A program made the position numbers and the translations under genes. From positions 43,123 through 107,122 of the forward strand of contig JAGQVE010000003.1 of NCBI GenBank assembly GCA_020438105.1: 64,000 nucleotides of DNA, given 5' to 3'. The notes under the pieces are model-generated. The model had not been told where the DNA came from. It worked only from the letters and a program-made list of their open reading frames with translations, and did not search any database. Every line of letters starts with the position of its first letter. Positions within the stretch are counted from its first letter, which is position 1. This document shows, piece by piece, positions 1,249 to 42,211 of the stretch. This DNA is from Bacteroidales bacterium (lineage in GTDB: Bacteria; Bacteroidota; Bacteroidia; Bacteroidales; JAADJA01).

Positions 1249-2673
1249 TTATTTTTTAGGTTCATTAAAGTTAATAGGAAAAGAAGCAAGTAATCCAATT
1301 GTATTCCTATTTAAAAGGCTTTTTTCACTTTCCAAATTATTGAAAATATCATTGAGTTTATAAAAAACTTCGATATTAACAATTGAACTTTGGTCTTTCA
1401 CTTTTTTGAAAGGAACGAGTATTCCAAATAGTAGTGATGATACAGGTTTGGATTCTTCTTGAAATAATATTTTAGGATTAATATGAAGAGCAAAATAACT
1501 TCTTTCTTTATTTCCGTAATATCTATAATAATCAAAATATAAAAGTAGCTGGCTAATATCTTCTTTGTAATCTCCTGTAAAAACATTTTGTGTAGTAAAA
1601 GATTCTCTACTTGGTTCTTCTGAAATTGTTTCGAAATCTTTTACAGTAACACTTGTTAATGAATTTAAATTATCACCTAATGCATAATTCAATCCCAAAG
1701 ACCAATATATATCAGATTTTTTATAATTAGTCCATTTGTAATGAGATATAGATGCACTCAATTTTAAAGTCGTGTAACTATCTTTTTTAATTTGATTCTC
1801 AAAATCTACATCCTTGTTAAAATATTTAAACTCATTATTTTTCACGCCCCCACCAAATGATAACCAGTAGATATTTATACCTGAAATTGATTGGCTATAA
1901 ATTTTCTTACGGTTGGCCTCAATATCTTTTTCCTTCTTTTGTAAAAGTTTTTCTTCTTCCTCCTCAAAATATCCTTCAACATTTATTTTATCTAATTTTT
2001 TATTGAGTTTTTCTATCTCAAATTTATTAATCGCTCTTGCATAATTTAGGCTATCAAGCTTAAGTTTGATTTCCCCCTTTTTATTAACGTCTTTTTCGTT
2101 AATATATTTAACTGAATCCTTTTTTATTGAAGTGTCCAATTGTTTTTTCTTATTTAAGTTCTTCTCTAAGGCATATATTACATCTAAAGAATCTTTTCTG
2201 AATATTATATCCAAGGAGTCCTTCTTGTATTCATTTTCTATCTTAATTAATTCATTTCTAATTTTATCCCTCTCAAATGAATTACGTTTTATTGAATTAT
2301 TTGAAAAAGGATTAATTAATAAATGATAAGTTATTTTACCAGCTACATTCTTGTTTAATTCACCGTCTGTCAGGAAACCTGACACGCCCTCCGTAGCACC
2401 ACCAGATGCTTCAATTGTTAGTATACTACCATTTTTTCTTAAAATACTACCTCCCAACTTTAAGGATTCATCTGTAGTAGAAATTGCAGCAAAATTACCA
2501 ATAGATTGAAACGAATTTCCCGTGATAATTTTTGAAAACTGTAGGTTTAGAATTTTTTTGAATTCACTATGACCAATAGAATCAAGACCAGTTTGGTCAG
2601 CTATCGTTTGTGCTGTAATACCTTGACTGACAGTGAGAATAAGCCAAATTAATAAAATAGATTTTGTTTTCAT
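1249..2673 (-). CDS. Secreted protein with a central Lys/Glu-rich coiled coil and a Tyr/Asn-rich beta-type C-terminal region (hypothetical)
   Basis: 474-aa ORF. The signal peptide is MKTKSILLIWLILTVSQGITAQ. Heptad-like KE-rich region at about aa 130-260. No family recognised. Confidence 0.6.
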   Translation of the reverse strand: MKTKSILLIWLILTVSQGITAQTIADQTGLDSIGHSEFKKILNLQFSKIITGNSFQSIGNFAAISTTDESLKLGGSILRKNGSILTIEASGGATEGVSGFLTDGELNKNVAGKITYHLLINPFSNNSIKRNSFERDKIRNELIKIENEYKKDSLDIIFRKDSLDVIYALEKNLNKKKQLDTSIKKDSVKYINEKDVNKKGEIKLKLDSLNYARAINKFEIEKLNKKLDKINVEGYFEEEEEKLLQKKEKDIEANRKKIYSQSISGINIYWLSFGGGVKNNEFKYFNKDVDFENQIKKDSYTTLKLSASISHYKWTNYKKSDIYWSLGLNYALGDNLNSLTSVTVKDFETISEEPSRESFTTQNVFTGDYKEDISQLLLYFDYYRYYGNKERSYFALHINPKILFQEESKPVSSLLFGILVPFKKVKDQSSIVNIEVFYKLNDIFNNLESEKSLLNRNTIGLLASFPINFNEPKK

Positions 2674-2973
2674 GGATTTAGTGTTTTTCAGTTATAGCTA
2701 TCGTATTATTCGTTTATGTTTTATTTAACTTTTCAATTGAAATTCTCATTCTCGTATCCAAATGTTGCCCAACTACCTGCTAACGCCCACCCTTATGGTT
2801 ATTATTTCCACTTTATCCACCACAGTTCTACCTGATTTTGATTTGTTTATAGCGGAATATATTCTCGCAAGTGTCATGATTAGTCATGTGGTATCCATTT
2901 GAAGGCATGATTAAAAACGGGTTGTGTAATTCGGGATCGTAGTATGGTTGCATCGGTTTGTTCGAATAAATAT

Positions 2974-3315
2974 TTAATTTAAAATATTTTTGATTGTTTT
3001 CACCATTGTGAACTTGTATTTTTTATTATCAACAGTAAATTTATTCTTTGCAGGTATCCCTAATTTCCATTGAATTTCTGTTTCGGAAATTTTATATTTT
3101 GTATGCTTTACGTTTTCTCCATCTATTAGAAGATCCAGAGTAGTTTTTAATAATTTAGATGCCTCTTCAGCAGAATGTATGGATACGATAGTTATTTTAT
3201 CCGGAATAAGAAATTTACGATCTGTTGGTTCTTTCAGTGAGATATCCTGAGAATATATAAAGGTGCAAAGGAGAACAAATAAACTAGTAAAAAGGATAGC
3301 AATTTGAATTTTCAT
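2974..3315 (-). CDS. Small secreted hypothetical protein
   Basis: 113-aa ORF with N-terminal signal MKIQIAILFTSLFVLLCTFIYSQ. Confidence 0.5.
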   Translation of the reverse strand: MKIQIAILFTSLFVLLCTFIYSQDISLKEPTDRKFLIPDKITIVSIHSAEEASKLLKTTLDLLIDGENVKHTKYKISETEIQWKLGIPAKNKFTVDNKKYKFTMVKTIKNILN

Positions 3316-3526
3316 AATATTAAATTATTGTATTCCGTGAATGTAGAATTAAAGGTATTAATAGCTTTCAATTAGCGATTTAAAAGAAAATTATTCTTCT
3401 TAATACTAGTCCATTACAAACTGAAATGTTAGAAATGATCATTGGTAATAATCGTTTGCAAGTATAAAAAAACCTGTAGCAATAAACCGTGACATTTTAT
3501 GGTTTTAACAACTCTTTAACAAGTTA

Positions 3527-3952
3527 TTAGATTTCGGGGCCTTTTCTGTTCTCCTTCTTCTCCGCCTGTTTTCGTTTGTTTTCCAGTCGTTTGGCCTTGG
3601 CGGCAGGAGAGGGTTTGGTGGGTTTGCGTTTTTTAGGTGGTGTGAGGGCTTTTTGGATGATGGCGAGGAGTTTTTCGGTGGCTTTTTCTTTGTTGTCGGA
3701 TTGGGAGCGGCTGTCCTGGGAAGTAACTATCAGTTCGCTTTCGTTGGTGAGTTTGGAGGCTAGTTTCGTTACTAACAATTGTTTTTGCTCGTCGGTGAGG
3801 AATGAGGATTGTAAGATATGAAAGCGTACTTCCACTTTGGTGCTCACCTTGTTGGCATGCTGGCCGCCGGGGCCACCGCTGCGGGTGGCGGCAAAGCTGA
3901 GTTCGTAATCCTTGATATTTTCGAGCAGCTTATCTGTTTCTGCGGTGTCCAT
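3527..3952 (-). CDS. arfB: Alternative ribosome-rescue factor ArfB (peptidyl-tRNA hydrolase, class I RF-like GGQ domain)
   Basis: Carries the GGQ motif SGGPGGQHANKVSTKVE and a Lys/Arg-rich C-terminal tail typical of ArfB/YaeJ. I chose the internal ATG (MDTAETDK...) at 3952. The track ORF extends to 4018, inside the helicase gene. Confidence 0.8.
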   Translation of the reverse strand: MDTAETDKLLENIKDYELSFAATRSGGPGGQHANKVSTKVEVRFHILQSSFLTDEQKQLLVTKLASKLTNESELIVTSQDSRSQSDNKEKATEKLLAIIQKALTPPKKRKPTKPSPAAKAKRLENKRKQAEKKENRKGPEI

Positions 3953-33605: not shown

Positions 33606-34412
33606 TTATTGTGCTAAATTTTTTTGTTTGGCAATTATTTTTGGAATAGAAAATGTAAATTCAGTTCCCTTGCCGGGAACAGATGCCACATTTAATTTGC
33701 CTCCCAATAAATGAATTAATCTTTCAGCGATGCTAAGACCAATTCCTAATCCCATCTCATAAGTTTCGTCTGTATTTTTTATTTTATAAAACTTTTCAAA
33801 GATCAACTTGAGGTGTTTATCTTCAATTCCAATACCCGTATCTCTCACAAAAAACTGTACGTCATTATCATTCAAAATGAAGCCAAAGCTAATGGTTCCT
33901 TGCCTTGTAAACCGGATAGCATTTTCAACCAAACTCTTTATTGATTCCTTGAGTCTGTCCTTATCGGTTATCAGAATCACATTGCTAGTACTTAAAATAT
34001 CATTGATTGTCCTGAGTTCGATTTTCTTGTATCCCAATTCGTCCAGATAATCCTTAAAGTATGCATGTAAATCTTCAATCAGTGCAGATAAATTACATTC
34101 AGATAGAATTATTTCAAGGTCGTTGTTTTGGATTTTGGCAATGAGCAGGATTTGATCAATCAGGCGTAATAATTCGCGGCTATTTTTATTTATTTCGGCA
34201 ATGAATAATTTTTTTTGTTCATCATCAAAGTTGGGATCGGTCAAGAGGTTCGAAAAACCAACAATCACATTCATTGGTGTTCTGATTTCATGAGATACGT
34301 TGGCAAGAAAAGACCTCTTTAGTTGTGAAACTTCATTTTCCTTATCATGGAGTTCCTGGGTCAATTTTTCAACCAGATTTTTTAATTCAGTATTGCTTGG
34401 CTCAGTATTCAT
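33606..34412 (-). CDS. Soluble histidine kinase (HisKA + HATPase_c only, no sensor or TM domain)
   Basis: H-box SHEIRTPMN and G-boxes DTGIGI / GLGIGLSIAERL...GKGTEF. Only about 40 aa of coiled coil precede the H-box. ATG at 34412; the track uses a GTG at 34421. Confidence 0.85.
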   Translation of the reverse strand: MNTEPSNTELKNLVEKLTQELHDKENEVSQLKRSFLANVSHEIRTPMNVIVGFSNLLTDPNFDDEQKKLFIAEINKNSRELLRLIDQILLIAKIQNNDLEIILSECNLSALIEDLHAYFKDYLDELGYKKIELRTINDILSTSNVILITDKDRLKESIKSLVENAIRFTRQGTISFGFILNDNDVQFFVRDTGIGIEDKHLKLIFEKFYKIKNTDETYEMGLGIGLSIAERLIHLLGGKLNVASVPGKGTEFTFSIPKIIAKQKNLAQ

Positions 34413-34623
34413 TGCCTTCACCGTTGTTAATTCATGTTATTCAAATGGTTTGGTTTTGTAAGTTAATACTTTATAAGGACAAAAGGTTACCCTGCAATTT
34501 AGGGGCTACTGATATATTTCTGATCCTGATCAACTGACTATTTAGAATTGTTATAAATTTCATGTTTTATTGAAAGAATGCTGAATTAATTTGGAAATTG
34601 ATTCCCAATTTGAATTTTTTTTT

Positions 34624-34631
34624 TATTTTTG
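34624..34631 (+). promoter_or_regulatory. Candidate -7 promoter box (TATTTTTG) for the small peptide gene
   Basis: Matches TAnnTTTG, 39 nt upstream of the ATG at 34670. The -33 element is unclear. Confidence 0.3.
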
Positions 34632-34669: not shown

Positions 34670-34855
34670 ATGAAGAAGAGAAGTCTTATTACCATTTTGG
34701 TGATTACCTTCGGTTTATTTGTTTCTTCAGCTGTTATTTCTCAGTCATCCTCTTCTTCTGAGCAAGCAAGTGCTGCTTGCACAGGCAACGGCGGTGGCGG
34801 TGGTTTAGTAGGTAATAGCTGCGGTGATGTAAACGGAGTATACGTCCCAGATTAA
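34670..34855 (+). CDS. Secreted 61-aa Ser/Gly/Cys-rich mini-protein (hypothetical)
   Basis: The Sec-type signal is MKKRSLITILVITFGLFVSSAVISQ. The mature part is about 36 aa with two Cys (ACTGNGGGGGLVGNSCGDVNGVYVPD). It has its own strong terminator. Confidence 0.55.
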   Translation: MKKRSLITILVITFGLFVSSAVISQSSSSSEQASAACTGNGGGGGLVGNSCGDVNGVYVPD

Positions 34856-34930
34856 TTCTGCTTTGTCTCTGTTTGTTTGCCATAAGGTAAACAAGTAAAT
34901 TGATGTAATCAATTAATGGACTTTAGGTTT

Positions 34931-34971
34931 AAGGAAAGATTCTGATTTTATCGGAAACTTTCCTTTTTTTT
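34931..34971 (+). terminator. Rho-independent terminator after the peptide gene
   Basis: The stem aaggaaag(attc)/(gaaa)ctttcctt has one mismatch and is followed by a T tract of about 8. Confidence 0.7.
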
Positions 34972-35026
34972 ATACCTATTTAATAAAACATTTTTAACAT
35001 TTCGGTGTATAAATCCTCGGATTTAT

Positions 35027-38000
35027 ATGCAGTTAAAAAGTTTAAGGATCAAATCACTTTCTATCAGCGTAATAGTTTTAATAATTACCCTGATAAATGT
35101 ACTATCTATTTCAGCACAAACTGGGAAGAAAGATGGTGGTAATCCTGCTTTTATAAGACATTTAATTAGCTTATCCCTTGCAGATTCGGCAATAAATCTT
35201 TTACAAAACGATTATAAACCGGAGCTCCCCGATAAAAATATTCTACTGGCAATTGCTTACCAATCCTTAGGACAAACTGATTCTGTATCATTTTATGTTC
35301 GTAGAAGCTTTGCGCAATTCAAAATGGAACCCAACCCTGATAAAAAGAAATTGGCAGAAATTTACTACATCCTTGGGTGGGCTAAATACAAATTATCAGA
35401 TATTGATAGTGCAGGGTATTTCAATTTGAAAGCTTTGGATTTGTGCAACTCATTAGATTTGGATAGTCTTAAAGTTTTTATTTTGAAAAATCTTGGGAAC
35501 AACAGTTTGGCAGGGGGTGATATTGAGGGTGCTGAAGCATATTATAACGAGGCTTTAAAAATAGAACGAGCTAAAAATACTCCATCAGTTGCTCTTTTGG
35601 CTGGTCTTATTCAAAATATGGGAATCATCTTTGCATCAACCGGCCAGTTGGATAGTGCAAAATTGTATTTTGCAAGATCACTTGAATTGAAAGAAACCAT
35701 ATCTCAATCCGACATTGGTTCACTTGCGAACGGATATGCCAACTTTAGTAATTTTCTGCGAAGTTTGGGAGAACCTATTGAAGCTCTAAAATATATCAAT
35801 AAGGCGGAGAAATTGTTGATTGAAAATAATAGTGAAGACTATCGTAAGTTGGCTCCTGTTTATCTTATTAAAGGGGGTGTTTTGATTATACTTAACAATT
35901 TTGAAGAAGCACTTACCTATCATGAGTTAGCATATACTGCATATCGGCAATTTTTGAAACCGGATGATAAAACCTTTGTTTCGCTAAATTATAACATTGG
36001 TAATATACATGAGTCACTGGGTAACTACTCGATGGCAATAAAATATCATCTGGATGTAATCGATAAGGACCTTGATCCTTTACAATTGGTTAAAACACTC
36101 AGGTCTTTAGGGTCATGTTATGCTAATATTGATCAGGACAGTTTGGCTGAAGTCTATTTCATTCGGTCGGTTGGAAGTGCAGAAAGTAACCTGGGAAAGC
36201 ACAATGATCAGACTGCCTTGAGCTATCTTAAAATTGGTTACTTCTACACTAATCTTGGTTATTATGATAAAGCGATTGATTATTACCATCGATCTCTTGC
36301 CGTTTATGAGAGTATTTATGGTGAAAAAAATCGTGATGTGTCCAACGTACTTTCTCTTATTGGATTTTATTATTTTAACACCAAAGATTATATTAGGTCA
36401 TTACAATTTTATCAAAAGTCATTAAACTCATTTTTCGAATTTTATAATGATACAAATTATTGCCATAATCCAACCATGGATTTGGATGATTTGGATTTTA
36501 ATGTTTTTATTATCCTTTATGGAAAAGCTTTTTCATTTTATGGCCTTTATGAAAGAAATACCAGGGATATAAGGGACCTGGAATATTGTGTCCAGACTAT
36601 TAATAAGGCCATTGAATATTATGAAAATTTTAAAAATACGCTTGATGCTGAAAACACCAAGCTTATTTTGGCAACAAGAGTTAACAATATTTATAATCTT
36701 GCTGTAAAAACAGCTTCTGAACTTTATTACAGAACGGGAGAGGCTAAATACATTGACCTTGCTTTCAGATATTCAGAAAAAAGTAAATCACAAGTTCTTC
36801 TATCTTCCATCCGCGAATCGGATGCAATTAAAGAAGGACTGATTCCTCATGATTTAAAGCAAAATGAAGAGCAAATTAAGAGCAATATTGTAACCCTTGA
36901 TAATTTAATTTATGAAGAAAAGCAAAAATCAAGTCAGGATTCAGTAAAAATTGCGGAATTACAAAAGGATTTGTACAGGCAAAAAATTATTTATGATAGT
37001 TTGATCCATTCTCTTGAAATAAATTATCCGGTTTATTTTAACCTTAAATTTAATCATGATGTAATTGACTTAAAAGATGTAATAAAAAATTTGGGCCCAA
37101 ATCAACTAATTGTAGAATATAAATTGGCTGATAGCTTGCTTTACACTTTTATATTGGGCGCGGATACAATCGCATTACACAGGAATACTATTGATACATC
37201 CTTTATTGGAAAAGTTGAAGAGTTCATCAATATGATGAAAATCCTACCGGTTTCTTCGGGAGCAGAAAAGAGCAGTTATGAATATGCTCAATATGGAAAT
37301 GAAATCTATAATGTACTTTTTCCGGGAGATTACTATGAATCTAAAGAGCTAATAATCATTCCGGATGATATTTTAGGTTACCTGAGTTTTGATGCATTGG
37401 TGACTAAATTGCCTGACAAAGCCACTTCCAGTTTTAGAACGCTGGATTATTTAATTTATAAACATCCTTTATTCTACGGTTATTCTGCAACATTACTATT
37501 TAATAAATCGAAGAAGGGGAGGCCTTCAAGGATGCTTCTGGCTATGGCGCCTACTTATAAAAGCTCCAGAGAGGTGAATCTTGCACATTCCAATGTTAGG
37601 GATATTGATCAAAATTTACGCCCTTTATTTCATACTGATAAGGAGGTATCTCAAATAAATGAAACTTTTAGTGGTAAGTTGCTGATAGGAGATGAAGCAA
37701 CTGAACAAAACTTCAAAGATATTGCCTCAAAGTATAAGATTCTTCATTTTGCGATGCATACACTTGTAAACGATGAAAATCCATTTGCTTCTCAATTGGT
37801 TTTTTCTGTGGGTCACGATACCATTGATGATGGATTATTGAATGTTTATGAAATTTATAATCTGGATTTAAATGCTGAGTTGGCTGTACTCAGTGCATGC
37901 AAAACAGGAGTTGGACGCCTAAACAGGGGAGAAGGTGTTATGAGCCTTGCCCGGGGATTCTTTTATGCTGGGGTTCCGGGTATTGTTATGACTTTATGGG

Positions 38001-38278
38001 CCATAGAGGATGGTGCCAGCATGGAGATCATTACAGGGTTTTATCAGAATCTGAATTCCGGAATGAAAAAAGATATTGCCCTCAGGGAAGCTAAATTAAA
38101 TTATTTAAACAATGCCGACCAGATGGGTTCACATCCATACTTTTGGGCTGCCTATGTCCAAATTGGCGATAATTCTGAGCTTTCAACAGAGACAAATCAA
38201 TATATGATTATTGAGGTCGTTGGTGGGGTGGTACTTTTGGTTTTAATTATTCTGTTAATTGTCAGAATTCGAAAGTGA
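35027..38278 (+). CDS. Membrane-anchored TPR-repeat / CHAT-domain (caspase-like) protease
   Basis: 1083 aa. The N-terminal signal/anchor is SLSISVIVLIITLINVLSISAQ, followed by about 600 aa of TPR-like repeats and a coiled coil. The C-terminal CHAT domain has His (ILHFAMHT) and Cys (LAVLSACKTG). The terminal TM is VVGGVVLLVLIILLIV followed by RIRK. Confidence 0.85.
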   Translation: MQLKSLRIKSLSISVIVLIITLINVLSISAQTGKKDGGNPAFIRHLISLSLADSAINLLQNDYKPELPDKNILLAIAYQSLGQTDSVSFYVRRSFAQFKMEPNPDKKKLAEIYYILGWAKYKLSDIDSAGYFNLKALDLCNSLDLDSLKVFILKNLGNNSLAGGDIEGAEAYYNEALKIERAKNTPSVALLAGLIQNMGIIFASTGQLDSAKLYFARSLELKETISQSDIGSLANGYANFSNFLRSLGEPIEALKYINKAEKLLIENNSEDYRKLAPVYLIKGGVLIILNNFEEALTYHELAYTAYRQFLKPDDKTFVSLNYNIGNIHESLGNYSMAIKYHLDVIDKDLDPLQLVKTLRSLGSCYANIDQDSLAEVYFIRSVGSAESNLGKHNDQTALSYLKIGYFYTNLGYYDKAIDYYHRSLAVYESIYGEKNRDVSNVLSLIGFYYFNTKDYIRSLQFYQKSLNSFFEFYNDTNYCHNPTMDLDDLDFNVFIILYGKAFSFYGLYERNTRDIRDLEYCVQTINKAIEYYENFKNTLDAENTKLILATRVNNIYNLAVKTASELYYRTGEAKYIDLAFRYSEKSKSQVLLSSIRESDAIKEGLIPHDLKQNEEQIKSNIVTLDNLIYEEKQKSSQDSVKIAELQKDLYRQKIIYDSLIHSLEINYPVYFNLKFNHDVIDLKDVIKNLGPNQLIVEYKLADSLLYTFILGADTIALHRNTIDTSFIGKVEEFINMMKILPVSSGAEKSSYEYAQYGNEIYNVLFPGDYYESKELIIIPDDILGYLSFDALVTKLPDKATSSFRTLDYLIYKHPLFYGYSATLLFNKSKKGRPSRMLLAMAPTYKSSREVNLAHSNVRDIDQNLRPLFHTDKEVSQINETFSGKLLIGDEATEQNFKDIASKYKILHFAMHTLVNDENPFASQLVFSVGHDTIDDGLLNVYEIYNLDLNAELAVLSACKTGVGRLNRGEGVMSLARGFFYAGVPGIVMTLWAIEDGASMEIITGFYQNLNSGMKKDIALREAKLNYLNNADQMGSHPYFWAAYVQIGDNSELSTETNQYMIIEVVGGVVLLVLIILLIVRIRK

Positions 38279-38379
38279 TTTATTGGTCTCTCCAATCGCC
38301 AAGTTTATTAATCCTGGAAGTTAATTTTAATGTCAATAGTTATTTCATTAAATCACAGCAGGGGTCGCTCTGTCATGAT

Positions 38380-38415
38380 AAAAAAAAGGCTACCTAAATA
38401 AATCAGGTAGCCTTT
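38380..38415. terminator. Bidirectional terminator between the CHAT gene and the anti-sigma gene
   Basis: An A tract, then GGCTACCT - 9-nt loop - AGGTAGCC, then ttt, located between convergent stops. Confidence 0.7.
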
Positions 38416-38437
38416 CGCATTAATTTTTATTTGTAAT

Positions 38438-39172
38438 TTAGTTAAGATACTTCAGGATCTCTTTCGCCTGAGCAGCATAATAAGAACTGCTTTCAGCAAT
38501 TTTCCCGAATTGTACTAATGCCTGTGATTTTTGATTGTTCATCAAATAGATTAATCCCAGGTACCATTCGGCTTGCTCAACAAATAAATTGTCTTTGTCA
38601 TTGATAACAAATTCAAATGATTCAAGTGCATCATCAAATTGTTCCAGTTCGATATAGCATATGCCCGAATAAAACTTGGCTGTAATTTGATTATCTAGCG
38701 AATTGAAATATTTTAAAGCATTAACATAATCATTTTGCTGATAAAAGTTAAAAGCTTCTTTAAGTGCATCGTCTGAATTCAGTTCCAATGACCTGTACTG
38801 TAGTATTGATTTTGCTGGTTTGTAATATTTAGTTACAAGCCGTTCTGTTGAATAAGGTTTATTAGATAATATGTACCATAAACCACCCACAACAACGATT
38901 AATGCAAAGGAAGCAGCAGCCAGGTGCCAGGTTTTAAGAATATCCTTTTGAAAATTAATGGATGTCGGAGAGGATTGTTGCTTAAATTGGGTCCGGAGAA
39001 GATCTTTAAATTCAGTAAAATTCTTGTCACGAATGGCATTATTAACTTCCATTCGCATTTTGAACTCCGAAAATAAAATCGGATTAGTTTCGAGTTCATT
39101 TTTAAATTTTAAAGTTTCTTCTTCACTCAGATTTCCATCTATGAATTCTTCGATTCTGAAATAATTATCCAT
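38438..39172 (-). CDS. Anti-sigma-factor-like membrane protein with a periplasmic TPR domain
   Basis: 244 aa. The N-terminus IEEFIDGNLSEEETLKFKNELETNPIL is a typical Bacteroidota anti-sigma N-domain. It has a single TM (LAAASFALIVVVGGLWYIL) and C-terminal TPR repeats. The start overlaps the sigma stop by 8 nt (ATGGATAA). Confidence 0.7.
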   Translation of the reverse strand: MDNYFRIEEFIDGNLSEEETLKFKNELETNPILFSEFKMRMEVNNAIRDKNFTEFKDLLRTQFKQQSSPTSINFQKDILKTWHLAAASFALIVVVGGLWYILSNKPYSTERLVTKYYKPAKSILQYRSLELNSDDALKEAFNFYQQNDYVNALKYFNSLDNQITAKFYSGICYIELEQFDDALESFEFVINDKDNLFVEQAEWYLGLIYLMNNQKSQALVQFGKIAESSSYYAAQAKEILKYLN

Positions 39173-39764
39173 TGTATTGTTTGTTAGTTTGAGTATGCCT
39201 GCTTAATTCATGAAACTCAGGATCATTTTTAATACTAATGACAAGTTTCTCTTTACACTGATGTTTCCGTTTTTTTGCATATTGCTCACTCTTAAATCCT
39301 AAAATTCTTGCTATCTCCTTTAATGGGATTCTGGCAAGAAAAAGTTCCAGTACCTTCTGACAGCTAAAGCTTAATCTTTTAAAATGCGTTTGATAAAGCT
39401 TGTACCTTTCATTCAGATCATATAAAACGAGGATGCTTTCATCAAGTGTTACAAAGTTTTCAGCATCTTCCGTATATTGTTTCCAGAGTTTCCTTTTTTC
39501 GAGCTGTTTGAGCCAAAGCAATCTGCTGACGGAATACAAATAAGTATTAAAAGAACATGTTAGTTTCAGATTATCATGTTGAAGTTTTTGGAAAATAACT
39601 AACATTGCGTCCTGATAGATGTCTTTCGCATCTTCTCTGGAACCCTGGTTTTGAGTGATAAAAACCTTTATCTGATGATAATAGTTTTTATAAATAAAAT
39701 CCAGAACATTAGTGTCTTTGTCTCTAATACCACTCAGTATTTCTTCAACCGTATATTCTTGCAC
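39165..39764 (-). CDS. ECF-type (sigma-70 family) RNA polymerase sigma factor
   Basis: 199 aa with region 2 (DAKDIYQDAMLVIFQKL) and a region 4 HTH (LKEIARILGFKSEQYAKKRKHQCKEKL). GTG start. Confidence 0.8.
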   Translation of the reverse strand: MQEYTVEEILSGIRDKDTNVLDFIYKNYYHQIKVFITQNQGSREDAKDIYQDAMLVIFQKLQHDNLKLTCSFNTYLYSVSRLLWLKQLEKRKLWKQYTEDAENFVTLDESILVLYDLNERYKLYQTHFKRLSFSCQKVLELFLARIPLKEIARILGFKSEQYAKKRKHQCKEKLVISIKNDPEFHELSRHTQTNKQYNG

Positions 39765-40060
39765 TATTCCTCTATTTATTCTAATTTTGAATTAAAGGTT
39801 ACCCTCTTGATTAAACAATTTTTACAAATTTCTTATTTCAATAAAGCTCATTAATTTATCAGTAAAAGGGTTGTGATTGATCCACTGGGATTATCCACTC
39901 CAATAGTTAAGGATAATTTCAGATTTCAATATTCCCAAGCTTATGTGATTAATTAAATGGGTAGTACGTTACAAAAAGGAAATAGTTTGAAATGGATTGT
40001 AGAAATTAATTAAATTTTTTTTATTGGTTTTATGGAATCTTTTGACAAAAAAAGATTGAC

Positions 40061-42211
40061 TTAATCCACAGACAATCGGGATGATTTGATGAGTATCCAC
40101 AACCCTGTTAAAAAGTTAATACTTCCCAAAATAAGGCAAACCTTAATAATACCAAAAATTGGAACCAGAATCACCGCTGCTATGAGCGCACCCAGCGCAC
40201 TTCCAAGTAAATCTGAACTATATGCTGAAGATGCAGTATTTGATATTGTATCTATTCGGAGTTTGGTGCCAATTGCAAACTGAGTTCCTGTAAGCATTCC
40301 CGTTAATAAAATAAAAATCACAAAAACAGATTGTGTTATCAGATTTCCGGGATGGCTGACCTTTATTGTTGTGAGAACCAATGGCATTAATATCGCAAAA
40401 ATTCCTATTGCATACTGAAGCAGGCTGTAGGTCCTTAAGTTGTCATTAAATTTCTTATGTAAATACAAAGAACCAATGGCAAGGCCTATCATAAAAACCG
40501 TAATTAAAATGCCGATTACGAAGTAAATATAACCATAAATAACCTGGAAGGCAATTAACAATATCAACTCAAGACTCGTAGCTGTAAATCCTGTTGTAAA
40601 TAATCCTAAATTGACAATATGAAGCCGAGGAATAATAAGTATTATAATAACCAGTAAAATTAATGCCACAAGTATCGTGTTAAATCGCGATTTGTTAAAC
40701 CATTCATTTTTATGCAGTATAAATGATACTGGCATAAAATCATAGTTGATGGTTATATCATCTGTAATTGTTTCCTCTATTTGTAATCGCTTTTCATTAA
40801 TAAAGTTGTCATCCAGGTAATTTGGGTTGATGTACTTATTAATCACTCCTTTCATTCGTGATAACCCACCAATTTCTGCCGATACAAGCCCATCAGATGC
40901 AAGAAAGTGGTTTCGCATTCCGGGAATTATAATAACATTATCAAAAATCAGATTCAATGTTGAATATAATGTATTATGTAATTGTTTTCCTTCATCGCTC
41001 AATAATCCTGCTGATGATGATAAACTCAAAGAAACTATACCTGAAGGTGATAGCTTGTGTTTTAACTCTTCAAAAAACTCAAGGGTGTAATACCTGTTTA
41101 TGTTAGTATTTATTGGATCTGGAAGGTTGATTATTACGACGTCGTAAACCTTGTTATAATCATTTAAAAACCTCCTTGGGTCTTGCTTAATAATCTGGAT
41201 TTTTTTATTGTCAAGATTTTGAGAACTTCCATATTTACTCGTTAAGCTAAACAAGGTAGTGTTAATCTCAAAATAGTCAAGACTTTTAATATTATATTTT
41301 AAGATCTCTCGTGATGTACCTTCAATTCCTCCTGAAATAAGCAAAATGTTTTCAGGGTTTGGATGTTGAAGCATTGCGAAATGAATATCCTCTTCAAATT
41401 CAACGGTATTATCATTGGAATATAAAAGGGTTCCGTTTTCAAAAAAGCTATACTGACCTGCAATTTCAGTTACTACAATCTCCCCATAAGCACTATCTTT
41501 TTGATCTATAATTTTCTGATTATTATAAATGAGGTTTAGGGTGATACTGTTTATGTCAATCATCATCACTGCTCCGGCAAGCAAAATCGTTGTAATACCT
41601 GCAATTCGGGTAGTGGAGTTGCCCTGAATTTTATACGAAAGATATAGTGCTGTGCCAAAATTTATGATCATTAATAATTTTAAACTGAAGATGGAATTGA
41701 AAAGGAAGATCAATAGAAAATTAAAAATAATTCCTCCTGTTATGCTTCCGATAGCCTCAAATGAATAAATGTTGTTGATTTGATTGGTATAACCCATTAC
41801 TGAAATTTGGGTACTGAAGTAAGTAAACAAAATCCCGGAAAGTAGACAAAAGGGAAGCATCAAAAGAAGTGTGCCAAATAATATCTGTCCTAAATTGAAT
41901 ATTACGCCTGTGGGGAATAATGCATAACGTAGATAGAAAACAAAAAAAACAGTTAGTAACGGTAATATTCCCATAAGAAGATGGGCAATAAAAACAAATA
42001 GCGGCTTGTTTTCAATATTTTTTGTCCTTCGGCCCAGATAGGCACCCAGCGCGGTTAATATCATCCAGTTTGAGAGAACAATTCCAATAATGAGCTCATT
42101 TCCATTGAAAATTGATAAAAACAACCTCAACAGTATTATTTGAGTTATCATCGTTGTAAAACCAATAATGAAAACAGAAAATTTTATGTTGTTTTCACTA
42201 CTTAATCGCAT
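40061..42211 (-). CDS. Polytopic membrane protein with an embedded spermidine synthase-like (aminopropyltransferase fold) domain
   Basis: 716 aa with about 7-8 N-terminal TMs. The central domain reads ILLISGGIEGTSREIL...VYDVVIINLPDPINTNINRYYTLEFFEELKHKLSPSGIV. About 6 TMs follow at the C-terminus. Confidence 0.7.
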   Translation of the reverse strand: MRLSSENNIKFSVFIIGFTTMITQIILLRLFLSIFNGNELIIGIVLSNWMILTALGAYLGRRTKNIENKPLFVFIAHLLMGILPLLTVFFVFYLRYALFPTGVIFNLGQILFGTLLLMLPFCLLSGILFTYFSTQISVMGYTNQINNIYSFEAIGSITGGIIFNFLLIFLFNSIFSLKLLMIINFGTALYLSYKIQGNSTTRIAGITTILLAGAVMMIDINSITLNLIYNNQKIIDQKDSAYGEIVVTEIAGQYSFFENGTLLYSNDNTVEFEEDIHFAMLQHPNPENILLISGGIEGTSREILKYNIKSLDYFEINTTLFSLTSKYGSSQNLDNKKIQIIKQDPRRFLNDYNKVYDVVIINLPDPINTNINRYYTLEFFEELKHKLSPSGIVSLSLSSSAGLLSDEGKQLHNTLYSTLNLIFDNVIIIPGMRNHFLASDGLVSAEIGGLSRMKGVINKYINPNYLDDNFINEKRLQIEETITDDITINYDFMPVSFILHKNEWFNKSRFNTILVALILLVIIILIIPRLHIVNLGLFTTGFTATSLELILLIAFQVIYGYIYFVIGILITVFMIGLAIGSLYLHKKFNDNLRTYSLLQYAIGIFAILMPLVLTTIKVSHPGNLITQSVFVIFILLTGMLTGTQFAIGTKLRIDTISNTASSAYSSDLLGSALGALIAAVILVPIFGIIKVCLILGSINFLTGLWILIKSSRLSVD

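Follow-up and report, generated by a model that had tools for sequence, protein, structure and literature searches.

A split TPR-CHAT protease, ECF sigma factor and anti-sigma factor module with exported peptides in Bacteroidota, predicted to function in envelope signalling

Bacteroidota possess the most extracytoplasmic function (ECF) sigma factors per genome of any phylum, with approximately 22 on average (PMC7826278), and the input signal is known for almost none of them. A stretch of 64,000 nucleotides from a Bacteroidales genome (contig JAGQVE010000003.1; hereinafter the window) raises the question of how such a signal might be received: in it a gene for a protein that combines tetratricopeptide repeats (TPRs) with a caspase-like CHAT domain is flanked on one side by the gene for a 61-residue secreted peptide, with a histidine kinase gene beyond it, and on the other by a convergent operon for an ECF sigma factor and a single-pass membrane protein with further TPRs. 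The original prediction, made from the nucleotide sequence of this stretch, read the locus as an envelope signalling or proteolysis circuit in which the protease might act on the membrane protein as an anti-sigma factor. As far as computation goes our analysis supports this reading, the cleavage of the anti-sigma factor being a step that we infer. Furthermore, comparisons of gene-neighborhoods and sequences make it near certain that the ECF sigma factor, the anti-sigma factor, the TPR-CHAT protein and an exported peptide form a functional module. New with respect to the original prediction are a promoter motif, the kinase as a predicted target of the sigma factor, a candidate cut site and the exported peptide as a general feature of the module.

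An alignment of 14 CHAT proteins (A2) recovered at least 561 relatives in contigs representing one genome per species, and the best 80 loci, which were examined, all come from Bacteroidota; the carriers include Bacteroidales, Lentimicrobiaceae, Prolixibacteraceae, Ancylomarina, Sunxiuqinia, Draconibacterium, Cytophagales, Saprospiraceae and Aquimarina. Clustering of every open reading frame (ORF) within 6 kb of the CHAT gene revealed orthologues of the window's sigma and anti-sigma factors as the sole widely shared neighbors, with 43 loci each, the next cluster being found in 16 loci. When only the 40 loci with at least 3 kb of sequence on each side are considered, 26 have both the sigma and the anti-sigma gene within 6.5 kb and 13 have neither, the latter being mostly the most distant paralogues, such as the extra copies in Aquimarina. 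The association also holds in the opposite direction: in a set of 80 metagenome loci anchored on the sigma factor (alignment A8, 9 sequences), 25 have at least 4 kb on each side (two of them belonging to the window's own organism), and a TPR-CHAT gene is found within 5 kb in 21 and an anti-sigma gene in 23 of these. The sigma/anti-sigma pair may lie convergent and downstream of the CHAT gene, as in the window, or upstream of it, and some loci are split, with the sigma gene downstream and an anti-sigma-like gene upstream. Given that both order and orientation vary, the proximity of these genes appears to have been kept through rearrangement and is not mere synteny. The co-conservation of four genes across the phylum, which the original prediction had named as a check, stands for the protease, sigma factor and anti-sigma factor, which are linked in both directions, but a homologue of the window's peptide is limited to the nearest clade; in most other clades a peptide with a double-glycine (GG) leader occupies the equivalent position. 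The original prediction had named four observations that would speak against it, namely absence of co-conservation, orthologs lacking the catalytic dyad, a cytoplasmic CHAT domain and a sigma regulon unrelated to the neighboring genes, and none of them was encountered.

The GG peptides are encoded by one to three small ORFs per locus, with a leader of the form LSxxELxxIxGG followed by a short (~10-25 residues), acidic or proline-rich core. They are usually divergent from the CHAT gene, at up to ~1 kb from its start, and most are preceded by the ECF-type promoter motif described below, at 19-32 bits. Their leaders match the model TIGR01847 above its cut-off in two peptides and NF047798 at its cut-off, along with weak matches to TIGR04149, Bacteriocin_IIc and ComC; weak scores are expected for models of 15-residue leaders. 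In at least 7 loci the peptide genes are followed by genes for a C39-peptidase ABC transporter (PCAT) and an HlyD protein, and in several loci the peptide operon includes the kinase. Since these operons continue into PCAT and HlyD, we conclude that the GG peptides are made for export. Across the 40 full-flank genome loci the peptide tracks the sigma factor: 18 have both, 9 the sigma factor without a peptide, 1 a peptide without the sigma factor and 12 neither, such that a peptide is seen in 18 of the 27 loci with the sigma factor as against 1 of the 13 without it. Among sigma-anchored loci with a near-full-length CHAT gene and a usable upstream flank, a peptide was found in 17 of 22 (14 GG and 3 of the window type). 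When motif-bearing secreted proteins are also counted, 28 of the 55 loci that have 1 kb or more of upstream sequence possess an exported partner adjoining the CHAT start. From clade to clade the peptide families show no relationship, whereas the CHAT, sigma and anti-sigma proteins are orthologous, and no residue after the GG site is common to all the core peptides. Extended operons with an ECF promoter are seen in L020 (3434-9673, minus strand), L125 (15440-19902, plus strand) and L018 (4907-9280, minus strand), loci being designated here by L-numbers; they begin with one or more GG peptides, continue in some cases with an anti-sigma-like TPR paralogue and the kinase, and end in all three with PCAT and HlyD. 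The L020 operon also encodes two stand-alone LytTR proteins devoid of receiver domains, in a layout that echoes loci of the ComCDE/ComAB type.

The window's own peptide gene (34670-34855, plus strand) belongs to a different export class, its product having a Sec-type hydrophobic N-terminal signal with predicted cleavage at about VIS|QSS, then a Ser/Gly-rich spacer and the C-terminal sequence GDVNGVYVPD. Double-glycine-leader/PCAT export systems are thus a feature of the relatives and not of the window, where we found no GG peptide, PCAT or LytTR gene within the 64 kb. The ORF is kept in L081, L082 and L083, whose CHAT proteins are 56-64% identical to that of the window, and in L013, L001 and L090. 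In the last 12 codons the window and L082 differ by 8 synonymous and 2 non-synonymous changes, a pattern indicating that this is a real gene under purifying selection. All copies end in [D/E]V-x-G-x-[FYW]-VP-[D/E], and in a six-frame translation of 1.27 Mb this motif (GDVNGxYVP[D/E] type) occurs nine times, in each case in an ORF that immediately precedes a CHAT gene and has the same orientation. Six of these ORFs, in five loci of Lentimicrobiaceae, code for proteins of ~405 residues that carry the motif internally, as GDVNGTFVP, in combination with a CarboxypepD_reg-like domain, a dockerin-like segment and a type IX secretion system (T9SS) sorting domain (Por_Secre_tail); these genes lie at 2506-3720 and 4247-5467 in L002, 8335-9543 in L003, 2455-3741 in L004, 3106-4338 in L011 and 8226-9452 in L019. 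All five loci have a second copy of the ECF motif on the T9SS gene copy directly upstream of CHAT.

The window's peptide gene had been described as a stand-alone transcription unit with a promoter-like box and a strong terminator, and each of these elements was recovered. The promoter-like region (34602-34631, plus strand) comprises a conserved box, TATTTTTG (34624-34631), and a conserved element before it, TTCCCAATTTGAA (34602-34614); both are kept in the window, L081-L083, L013 and L090, with similar sequences in L001. We take TATTTTTG to match the Bacteroidota -7 consensus TAnnTTTG, and the promoter is predicted to be of the housekeeping type. The terminator (34932-34971, plus strand) consists of a hairpin (34932-34964; -16.6 kcal/mol, z -3.4) and a T-run, and is conserved in five relatives. 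A generic scan for sigma-70 promoters was uninformative in the window, with 29 sites against 31 expected. The element TTCCCAATTTGAA sits 11 nt upstream of the TATTTTTG box and could be the binding site of a regulator, perhaps the partner of the kinase.

The TPR-CHAT gene (35027-38278, plus strand) starts 171 nt after the end of the peptide gene and codes for 1083 residues. It corresponds to an NCBI entry named 'CHAT domain-containing protein' from a Bacteroidales metagenome-assembled genome, and full-length relatives exist. The protein has a signal at residues 1-30, a TPR superhelix at about 40-470, long helical hairpins at 490-690 and a CHAT domain (PF12770) at 756-1048 (E 8e-54; nt 37292-38170), in addition to multiple TPR matches. 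The N-terminus has a hydrophobic segment (residues 5-33) preceded by K/R, and a cleavage-like site, SISA|QT; in the family alignment the signals end in A/S/G-Q, as is typical of signal-peptidase-I substrates of Bacteroidota. At the C-terminus, a transmembrane (TM) segment at about residues 1058-1080 (nt 38198-38266) precedes a basic tail, RIRK, and a TM-like segment is present in this position in 115 of 125 CHAT family members. Given the signal sequence and the C-terminal TM with its basic tail, the positive-inside rule predicts that both the TPR and the CHAT domains face the periplasm, in agreement with the topology originally proposed, and a cytoplasmic placement is not predicted. Furthermore, the CHAT domain ends at residue 1048, only ~10 residues before the TM, and the active site should consequently be confined to the membrane surface. 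The catalytic dyad is intact, with the motifs HFAMHT (H907/H911) and LSACKTG (C958); His911 (codon at nt 37757-37759) and Cys958 (nt 37898-37900) are invariant in 126 of 126 family ORFs.

Single-sequence searches of the PDB gave only TPR matches for the CHAT protein and none for the sigma factor, such that profiles and fold searches were needed. An AlphaFold2 model of the TPR-CHAT protein (mean predicted local distance difference test score 82.6) begins with a TPR superhelix followed by long helical hairpins, the CHAT domain then forming an alpha/beta fold with a helix at the end. The best solved matches in Foldseek searches are human separase (9hn0, 3e-14) and the TPR-CHAT protein of Craspase, Csx29 (8d9f, 8e-14; 8eey, 4e-13), with the structures of DdvA (8rw5, 8rot) matching at E 1e-13. 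Both the dyad and the overall fold place the protein among the TPR-CHAT proteases of the separase/Craspase Csx29/DdvA class (clan CD), and it is predicted to be proteolytically active. An 11-bp hairpin (GUGUAUAAAUC/GAUUUAUAUGC; 35005-35030, plus strand) has the CHAT start codon in its 3' arm and a folding energy of -11.5 kcal/mol (z -4.0; 0 of 200 shuffled sequences fold as well); in L081-L083 the stem is conserved and the loop variable. Its role may be to control translation of the protease, or it may be a palindrome bound by a protein. Aquimarina muelleri DSM 19832 has at least three paralogous TPR-CHAT genes in one genome (L060, L065, L080), with the sigma/anti-sigma pair adjoining L060 alone; the orphan paralogues may have other substrates or share one switch.

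The sigma factor gene (39165-39764, minus strand; 199 residues) encodes a protein matching TIGR02937, the sigma70-ECF model, at 44.3 bits (cut-off 42.9) and Sigma70_r2 at 24.6 bits (cut-off 24), and its family profile aligns end to end (positions 3-175) with the structures of AlgU, SigW and RpoE (7e-13 to 4e-10). These domains, together with a coupled anti-sigma gene and a conserved -35/-10 promoter predicted from sequence, identify it as an ECF (group 4) sigma factor. It defines a distinct subfamily (151 clusters at 50% identity, with E <=1e-30 among 1.84 billion representatives), for which the module offers a concrete candidate sensor, transducer and output. The main text of the published ECF classification makes no mention of CHAT (PMC7826278). 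The adjoining gene (38438-39172, minus strand) overlaps the sigma gene by the 8 nt originally reported and codes for a single-pass protein of 244 residues with a cytoplasmic helical N-domain (residues 1-75), one TM (about 84-104, within a hydrophobic segment at 81-104) and a periplasmic TPR region (130-244), in which Pfam matches cover residues 130-230 and alignment A3 indicates about three TPRs. A single TM between an N-domain and an extracytoplasmic sensor domain, the topology first described for this protein, is that of class I anti-sigma factors; it is mainly because of this topology and the conserved translational coupling to the ECF sigma factor that we assign the protein as the probable anti-sigma factor. 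The consensus of the N-domain in alignment A3 (IExYLxGEL..E...FExxL) has no zinc ligands (no CHCC pattern) and resembles the helix 1-2 patterns of anti-sigma factors without such ligands. A full-length profile searched against the PDB was swamped by TPR proteins, and a marginal match of the N-domain profile to Nif11 (7e-4) was treated as chance.

The most conserved periplasmic feature of the anti-sigma factor is its juxtamembrane linker, YYxP-x7-R127-S in the window and [YF]Y-x-P-x(6-7)-R-[SG] in the family. The YY is kept in 83 of 95 members and the Arg (R127; codon at nt 38792-38794) in 85 of 95, with another 9 having it shifted by one column (94/95). Arg is the residue after which separase and many other proteases of clan CD cut, and the R127 site, ~23 residues from the membrane, is a candidate for the site-1 cut. 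Long orthologues of ~500 residues, with an additional periplasmic region of ~250 residues before the TPRs, make up 35 of 94 anti-sigma sequences (e.g. L033 3009-4511, L053 11838-13343 and L041 7621-9171; Prolixibacteraceae and Draconibacterium are among these loci). In L017 (931-1692), L020 (8660-9409), L022 (8265-9023) and L027 (7471-8232) a second anti-sigma-like TPR paralogue lies beside the kinase gene on the upstream side of CHAT. Two of these loci, L017 and L022, have the sigma gene downstream of CHAT and no anti-sigma gene adjacent to it, such that the pairing is rearranged.

Examination of the regions 5' of the sigma genes revealed a conserved ECF-type promoter, GGGTTACCTTTT-N9-10-GAATAA, which in its fuller form reads GGG(T/A)TACCTTTT-N9-10-(C)G(A/G)AT(A/T)A. 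The window and 19 of 38 genome loci have this motif 34-44 nt before the sigma start. It was scored with a two-block position weight matrix at a threshold of 16 bits, with shuffled windows as the control; at least one match of this score is present in 63 of 80 sigma-anchored loci. The 64-kb window has exactly two such sites, as against ~0.4 in shuffled sequence: 1) AGGGTAACCTTTAATTCAAAATTAGAATAAA (39775-39805, minus strand; 25.7 bits), 41 nt 5' of the sigma start codon, which is a putative autoregulatory promoter; 2) AGGGTAACCTTTTGTCCTTATAAAGTATTAA (34463-34493, minus strand; 26.4 bits), on the 5' side of the kinase gene. The same pair of promoters is found in the closest relatives, L013 and L081-L083, and the -35 part of the kinase promoter, AAAAGGTTACCC on the plus strand, is invariant in five aligned relatives. 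A plus-strand element, GGTTACCC, was considered as an ECF promoter for the peptide and CHAT genes and rejected, being the -35 element of the kinase promoter as read on the opposite strand.

The kinase gene (33606-34421, minus strand; likely start at ATG 34412, alternatively GTG 34421) codes for the HisKA (DHp; 3e-17) and HATPase_c (6e-23) core of two-component kinases, with no hydrophobic segment and no sensor domain, as had been noted. No receiver-domain protein was found among the ORFs scanned next to the module, ORFs further out not having been scanned. An orthologue of the kinase adjoins the module in 9 of the genome loci and, among the sigma-anchored loci, in about 7. Since the ECF motif lies upstream of it in the window and its closest relatives, we predict that the kinase is a direct target, and hence an output, of the module's sigma factor. 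The predicted regulon is thus related to the neighboring genes, comprising the kinase in the window and, in relatives, also peptides and exporter. The CHAT gene usually has no sigma-type promoter of its own, except where it lies downstream of a peptide or T9SS gene, which fits a role as sensor component rather than output.

The original prediction knew of no experimentally characterised example of this architecture, and this now needs qualification: DdvA/DdvS of Myxococcus xanthus (PMC11506125) and Csx29/Csx30 (PMC10028731) are related systems. Our literature searches for the architecture found no description of a split Bacteroidota module or of its link to peptides. DdvA is a characterised anti-sigma factor with a fused periplasmic TPR-CHAT region, acts on the ECF sigma factor DdvS, and has been proposed to cleave itself before RseP acts; such fused proteins are reported only from Myxococcota and one Comamonas (PMC11506125). 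Both systems have an ECF sigma factor held by a single-pass anti-sigma factor, in the window a probable one, and a periplasmic TPR-CHAT region with a His/Cys dyad, and share the proposed logic in which CHAT makes the site-1 cut in a juxtamembrane linker and RseP follows. In the window, however, protease and anti-sigma factor are separate, convergent genes, neither of which has the other's domain, such that there is no fusion; the protease has its own signal sequence and C-terminal anchor, and the anti-sigma factor has only ~110 residues of TPRs and an N-domain without the zinc-binding CHCC pattern. Furthermore, unlike DdvA, the module includes an exported peptide gene, its family is found in Bacteroidota, and its predicted regulon consists of the kinase and exported peptides and not of a CBASS (cyclic-oligonucleotide-based antiphage signalling) and CRISPR defence island. 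By analogy, the locus may be viewed as a split version of the DdvA/DdvS principle, its closest characterised counterpart, with a peptide partner. In type III-E Craspase (Csx29, Csx30 and CASP-sigma) the CRISPR-associated TPR-CHAT protease Csx29 cleaves Csx30 and thereby relieves inhibition of an ECF-like sigma factor (PMC10028731), which autoregulates its locus, as predicted here; unlike the window's module, Craspase is cytoplasmic and RNA-activated through Cas7-11, its inhibitor Csx30 is soluble and unrelated to the anti-sigma factor, and it has no membrane anchor, peptide or kinase. The SAVED-CHAT/PCaspase cascade is a second cytoplasmic case.

In light of the above-described observations, we propose, with a probability of roughly 45%, that this is an envelope module in which a peptide is sensed outside the cell, the CHAT protease cuts the anti-sigma factor and the genes of the sigma factor are turned on. 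The TPR arrays of the protease, the anti-sigma factor or both would bind the exported peptide; binding would activate the CHAT domain, which as a site-1 protease would cut the anti-sigma linker (YYxP...R127-S); an RseP-type site-2 protease would clear the stump and free the sigma factor, which would then induce its own operon and the soluble histidine kinase, by which the signal would be relayed further. In most relatives the sigma factor would also induce the peptide genes, with the exporter where present, resulting in positive feedback of the quorum-sensing kind; in the window's clade, with the Sec pathway and a housekeeping-type promoter, this feedback arm would be absent or indirect. The scheme has precedents in RseA, which is cut by DegS and RseP in the sigma-E system, and RsiW, cut by PrsW and RasP in the sigma-W system, in that a single-pass anti-sigma factor would first be cut in the periplasm by a membrane-anchored, signal-activated protease. 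DegS is activated by the C-terminal peptides of unassembled porins, which parallels the activation proposed here by the C-terminus of a peptide. Many of the module's peptides end in a hydrophobic residue, Pro or Thr, and an acidic residue (VPD, VPE, ITE, ITD, DLD), and TPR domains clamp C-terminal acidic peptides, which for the module is a lead only. In contrast to DegS, a PDZ serine protease, and to the metalloproteases of the PrsW type, the window's site-1 protease would be caspase-like, belonging to clan CD, with a TPR sensor of ~600 residues and, unlike in DegS, a gene of its own would be dedicated to the activating peptide.

Several observations weigh against this proposal. Both the cleavage of the anti-sigma factor by CHAT and the binding of the peptide are steps that we infer from sequence, and autoproteolysis has not been demonstrated even for DdvA (PMC11506125). 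By the patterns used, no peptide was seen in 9 of the 27 sigma-carrying loci with full flanks, and the 12 of 40 full-flank CHAT loci with neither sigma factor nor peptide nearby belong for the most part to the most distant paralogues (25-32% identity). The partner beside CHAT varies by clade (Sec, GG or T9SS) and may be an output or a substrate instead of the signal. No ECF motif scoring at least 5 was found on the plus strand 5' of the window's peptide or CHAT genes. Finally, the N-domain of the anti-sigma factor resembles known domains weakly (zf-HC2 in 5 of 26, best E 9e-4), and its profile matched no anti-sigma structure in the PDB.

These points invite comparison with an alternative that we regard as somewhat unlikely, in which CHAT matures or degrades the adjoining exported peptide or protein, much as second-step proteases do in some double-glycine or lantibiotic systems, and the TPRs of the anti-sigma factor themselves sense the processed product. 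Such a role would be consistent with the exported partner next to the CHAT start in 28/55 and 17/22 loci, with the production of GG peptides for export by PCAT and HlyD in at least 7 loci, and with the GDVNGxFVP motif, which, being shared by the C-termini of 60-residue Sec peptides and the interior of 400-residue T9SS proteins and found upstream of CHAT only, has the appearance of a cleavage or recognition site. However, a protease that is orthologous throughout would have to process peptide families that are unrelated between clades and whose cores have no conserved residue after GG, and its catalytic domain, ~10 residues from the membrane, is better suited to a membrane-proximal substrate such as the anti-sigma linker with its near-invariant Arg, the best-conserved periplasmic feature of that protein. 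The bacteriocin-type models matched by the leaders (TIGR01847 and NF047798, with weak TIGR04149, Bacteriocin_IIc and ComC), the downstream PCAT and HlyD genes and the kinase and LytTR proteins of the L020 operon, reminiscent of Gram-positive bacteriocin and competence loci, evoke instead a locus for production of a bacteriocin-like peptide, or of a ribosomally synthesized and post-translationally modified one, under ECF control, with some other envelope cue as the input and the kinase as an accessory. This appears improbable to us: the cores do not have the cationic or amphipathic character generally known from class II bacteriocins, the conserved neighbors include no recurring immunity-like or modification gene, and the window's clade retains the sigma factor, anti-sigma factor, CHAT protease and kinase although its 64 kb have no GG peptide, PCAT or LytTR. 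Least probable of all, and in our view a distant prospect, is a regulator of phage defence after the manner of DdvA/DdvS, with TPR-CHAT sensing a phage protein and the sigma factor inducing defence genes; while the fold and predicted location match DdvA and CHAT proteases recur in defence systems, none of the five proteins had a defence-specific match in PADLOC, the matches being limited to a generic TPR model and a weak HATPase one, the predicted cis targets are the sigma operon, kinase, peptides and exporters and not defence genes, and the locus is surrounded by housekeeping genes, with synteny of the region extending across relatives.

If the proposed activation of the CHAT protease by an exported peptide is retained, the question arises as to whether the peptides convey information between cells. 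The double-glycine peptide loci of Firmicutes, ComCDE/ComAB, Blp and Pln, resemble the relatives in which a GG peptide, PCAT, HlyD-like partner, kinase and LytTR proteins are combined in one operon (L020), and in both the peptide genes are, or are predicted to be, under the system's own regulator with positive feedback. Unlike in those loci, the module's kinase has no membrane sensor domain, transcription would depend on an ECF sigma factor and not on a phosphorylated LytTR response regulator, the periplasmic TPR/CHAT/anti-sigma set is the candidate receptor, and the window's peptide has a Sec signal with no exporter in the window. The exported peptides with PCAT, kinase and LytTR proteins in some lineages are suggestive of Gram-negative peptide signalling, and we consider peptide-based cell-to-cell or self-monitoring signalling through an ECF sigma factor in Bacteroidota to be possible, though the odds are against it. 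If true, this would be a dedicated peptide-signalling system in a Gram-negative phylum; to our knowledge, no peptide-pheromone circuit wired through regulated anti-sigma proteolysis has been described. More generally, the module would extend the control of ECF sigma factors by TPR-CHAT proteins from CRISPR-linked and Myxococcus defence to a split envelope system embedded among housekeeping genes, with relatives in gut-, sediment- and marine-associated lineages. It also offers practical handles, namely a promoter motif for reporters and the candidate cleavage site R127, and is present in the cultured hosts Ancylomarina longa, Sunxiuqinia dokdonensis and Aquimarina muelleri DSM 19832.

With regard to the layout of the window, all ORFs were found at the positions originally given when their coordinates were rechecked. 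Between the convergent CHAT gene and sigma/anti-sigma operon lies a terminator hairpin (38384-38416, minus strand; a 14-bp stem followed by T8), which had been described as bidirectional; it is strong for the minus strand, i.e. for the sigma operon, but its T-tract on the CHAT side is weak. To the right of the module, 40061-42211 codes for a fused polytopic membrane/spermidine-synthase-like protein of 716 residues, with a match to NF037959 (MFS_SpdSyn) slightly under its cut-off and a partial match to PRK03612; the gene has no promoter motif and is syntenic with the module in L013 and L081-L083. To the left, a domain search identified a DPP-IV gene, and two ORFs of 1270 and 1426 residues further left are, by size and position, probably rpoB and rpoC; in relatives, tuf and S21 genes lie on this side. 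Housekeeping genes thus surround the module, and the region retains its synteny across relatives.

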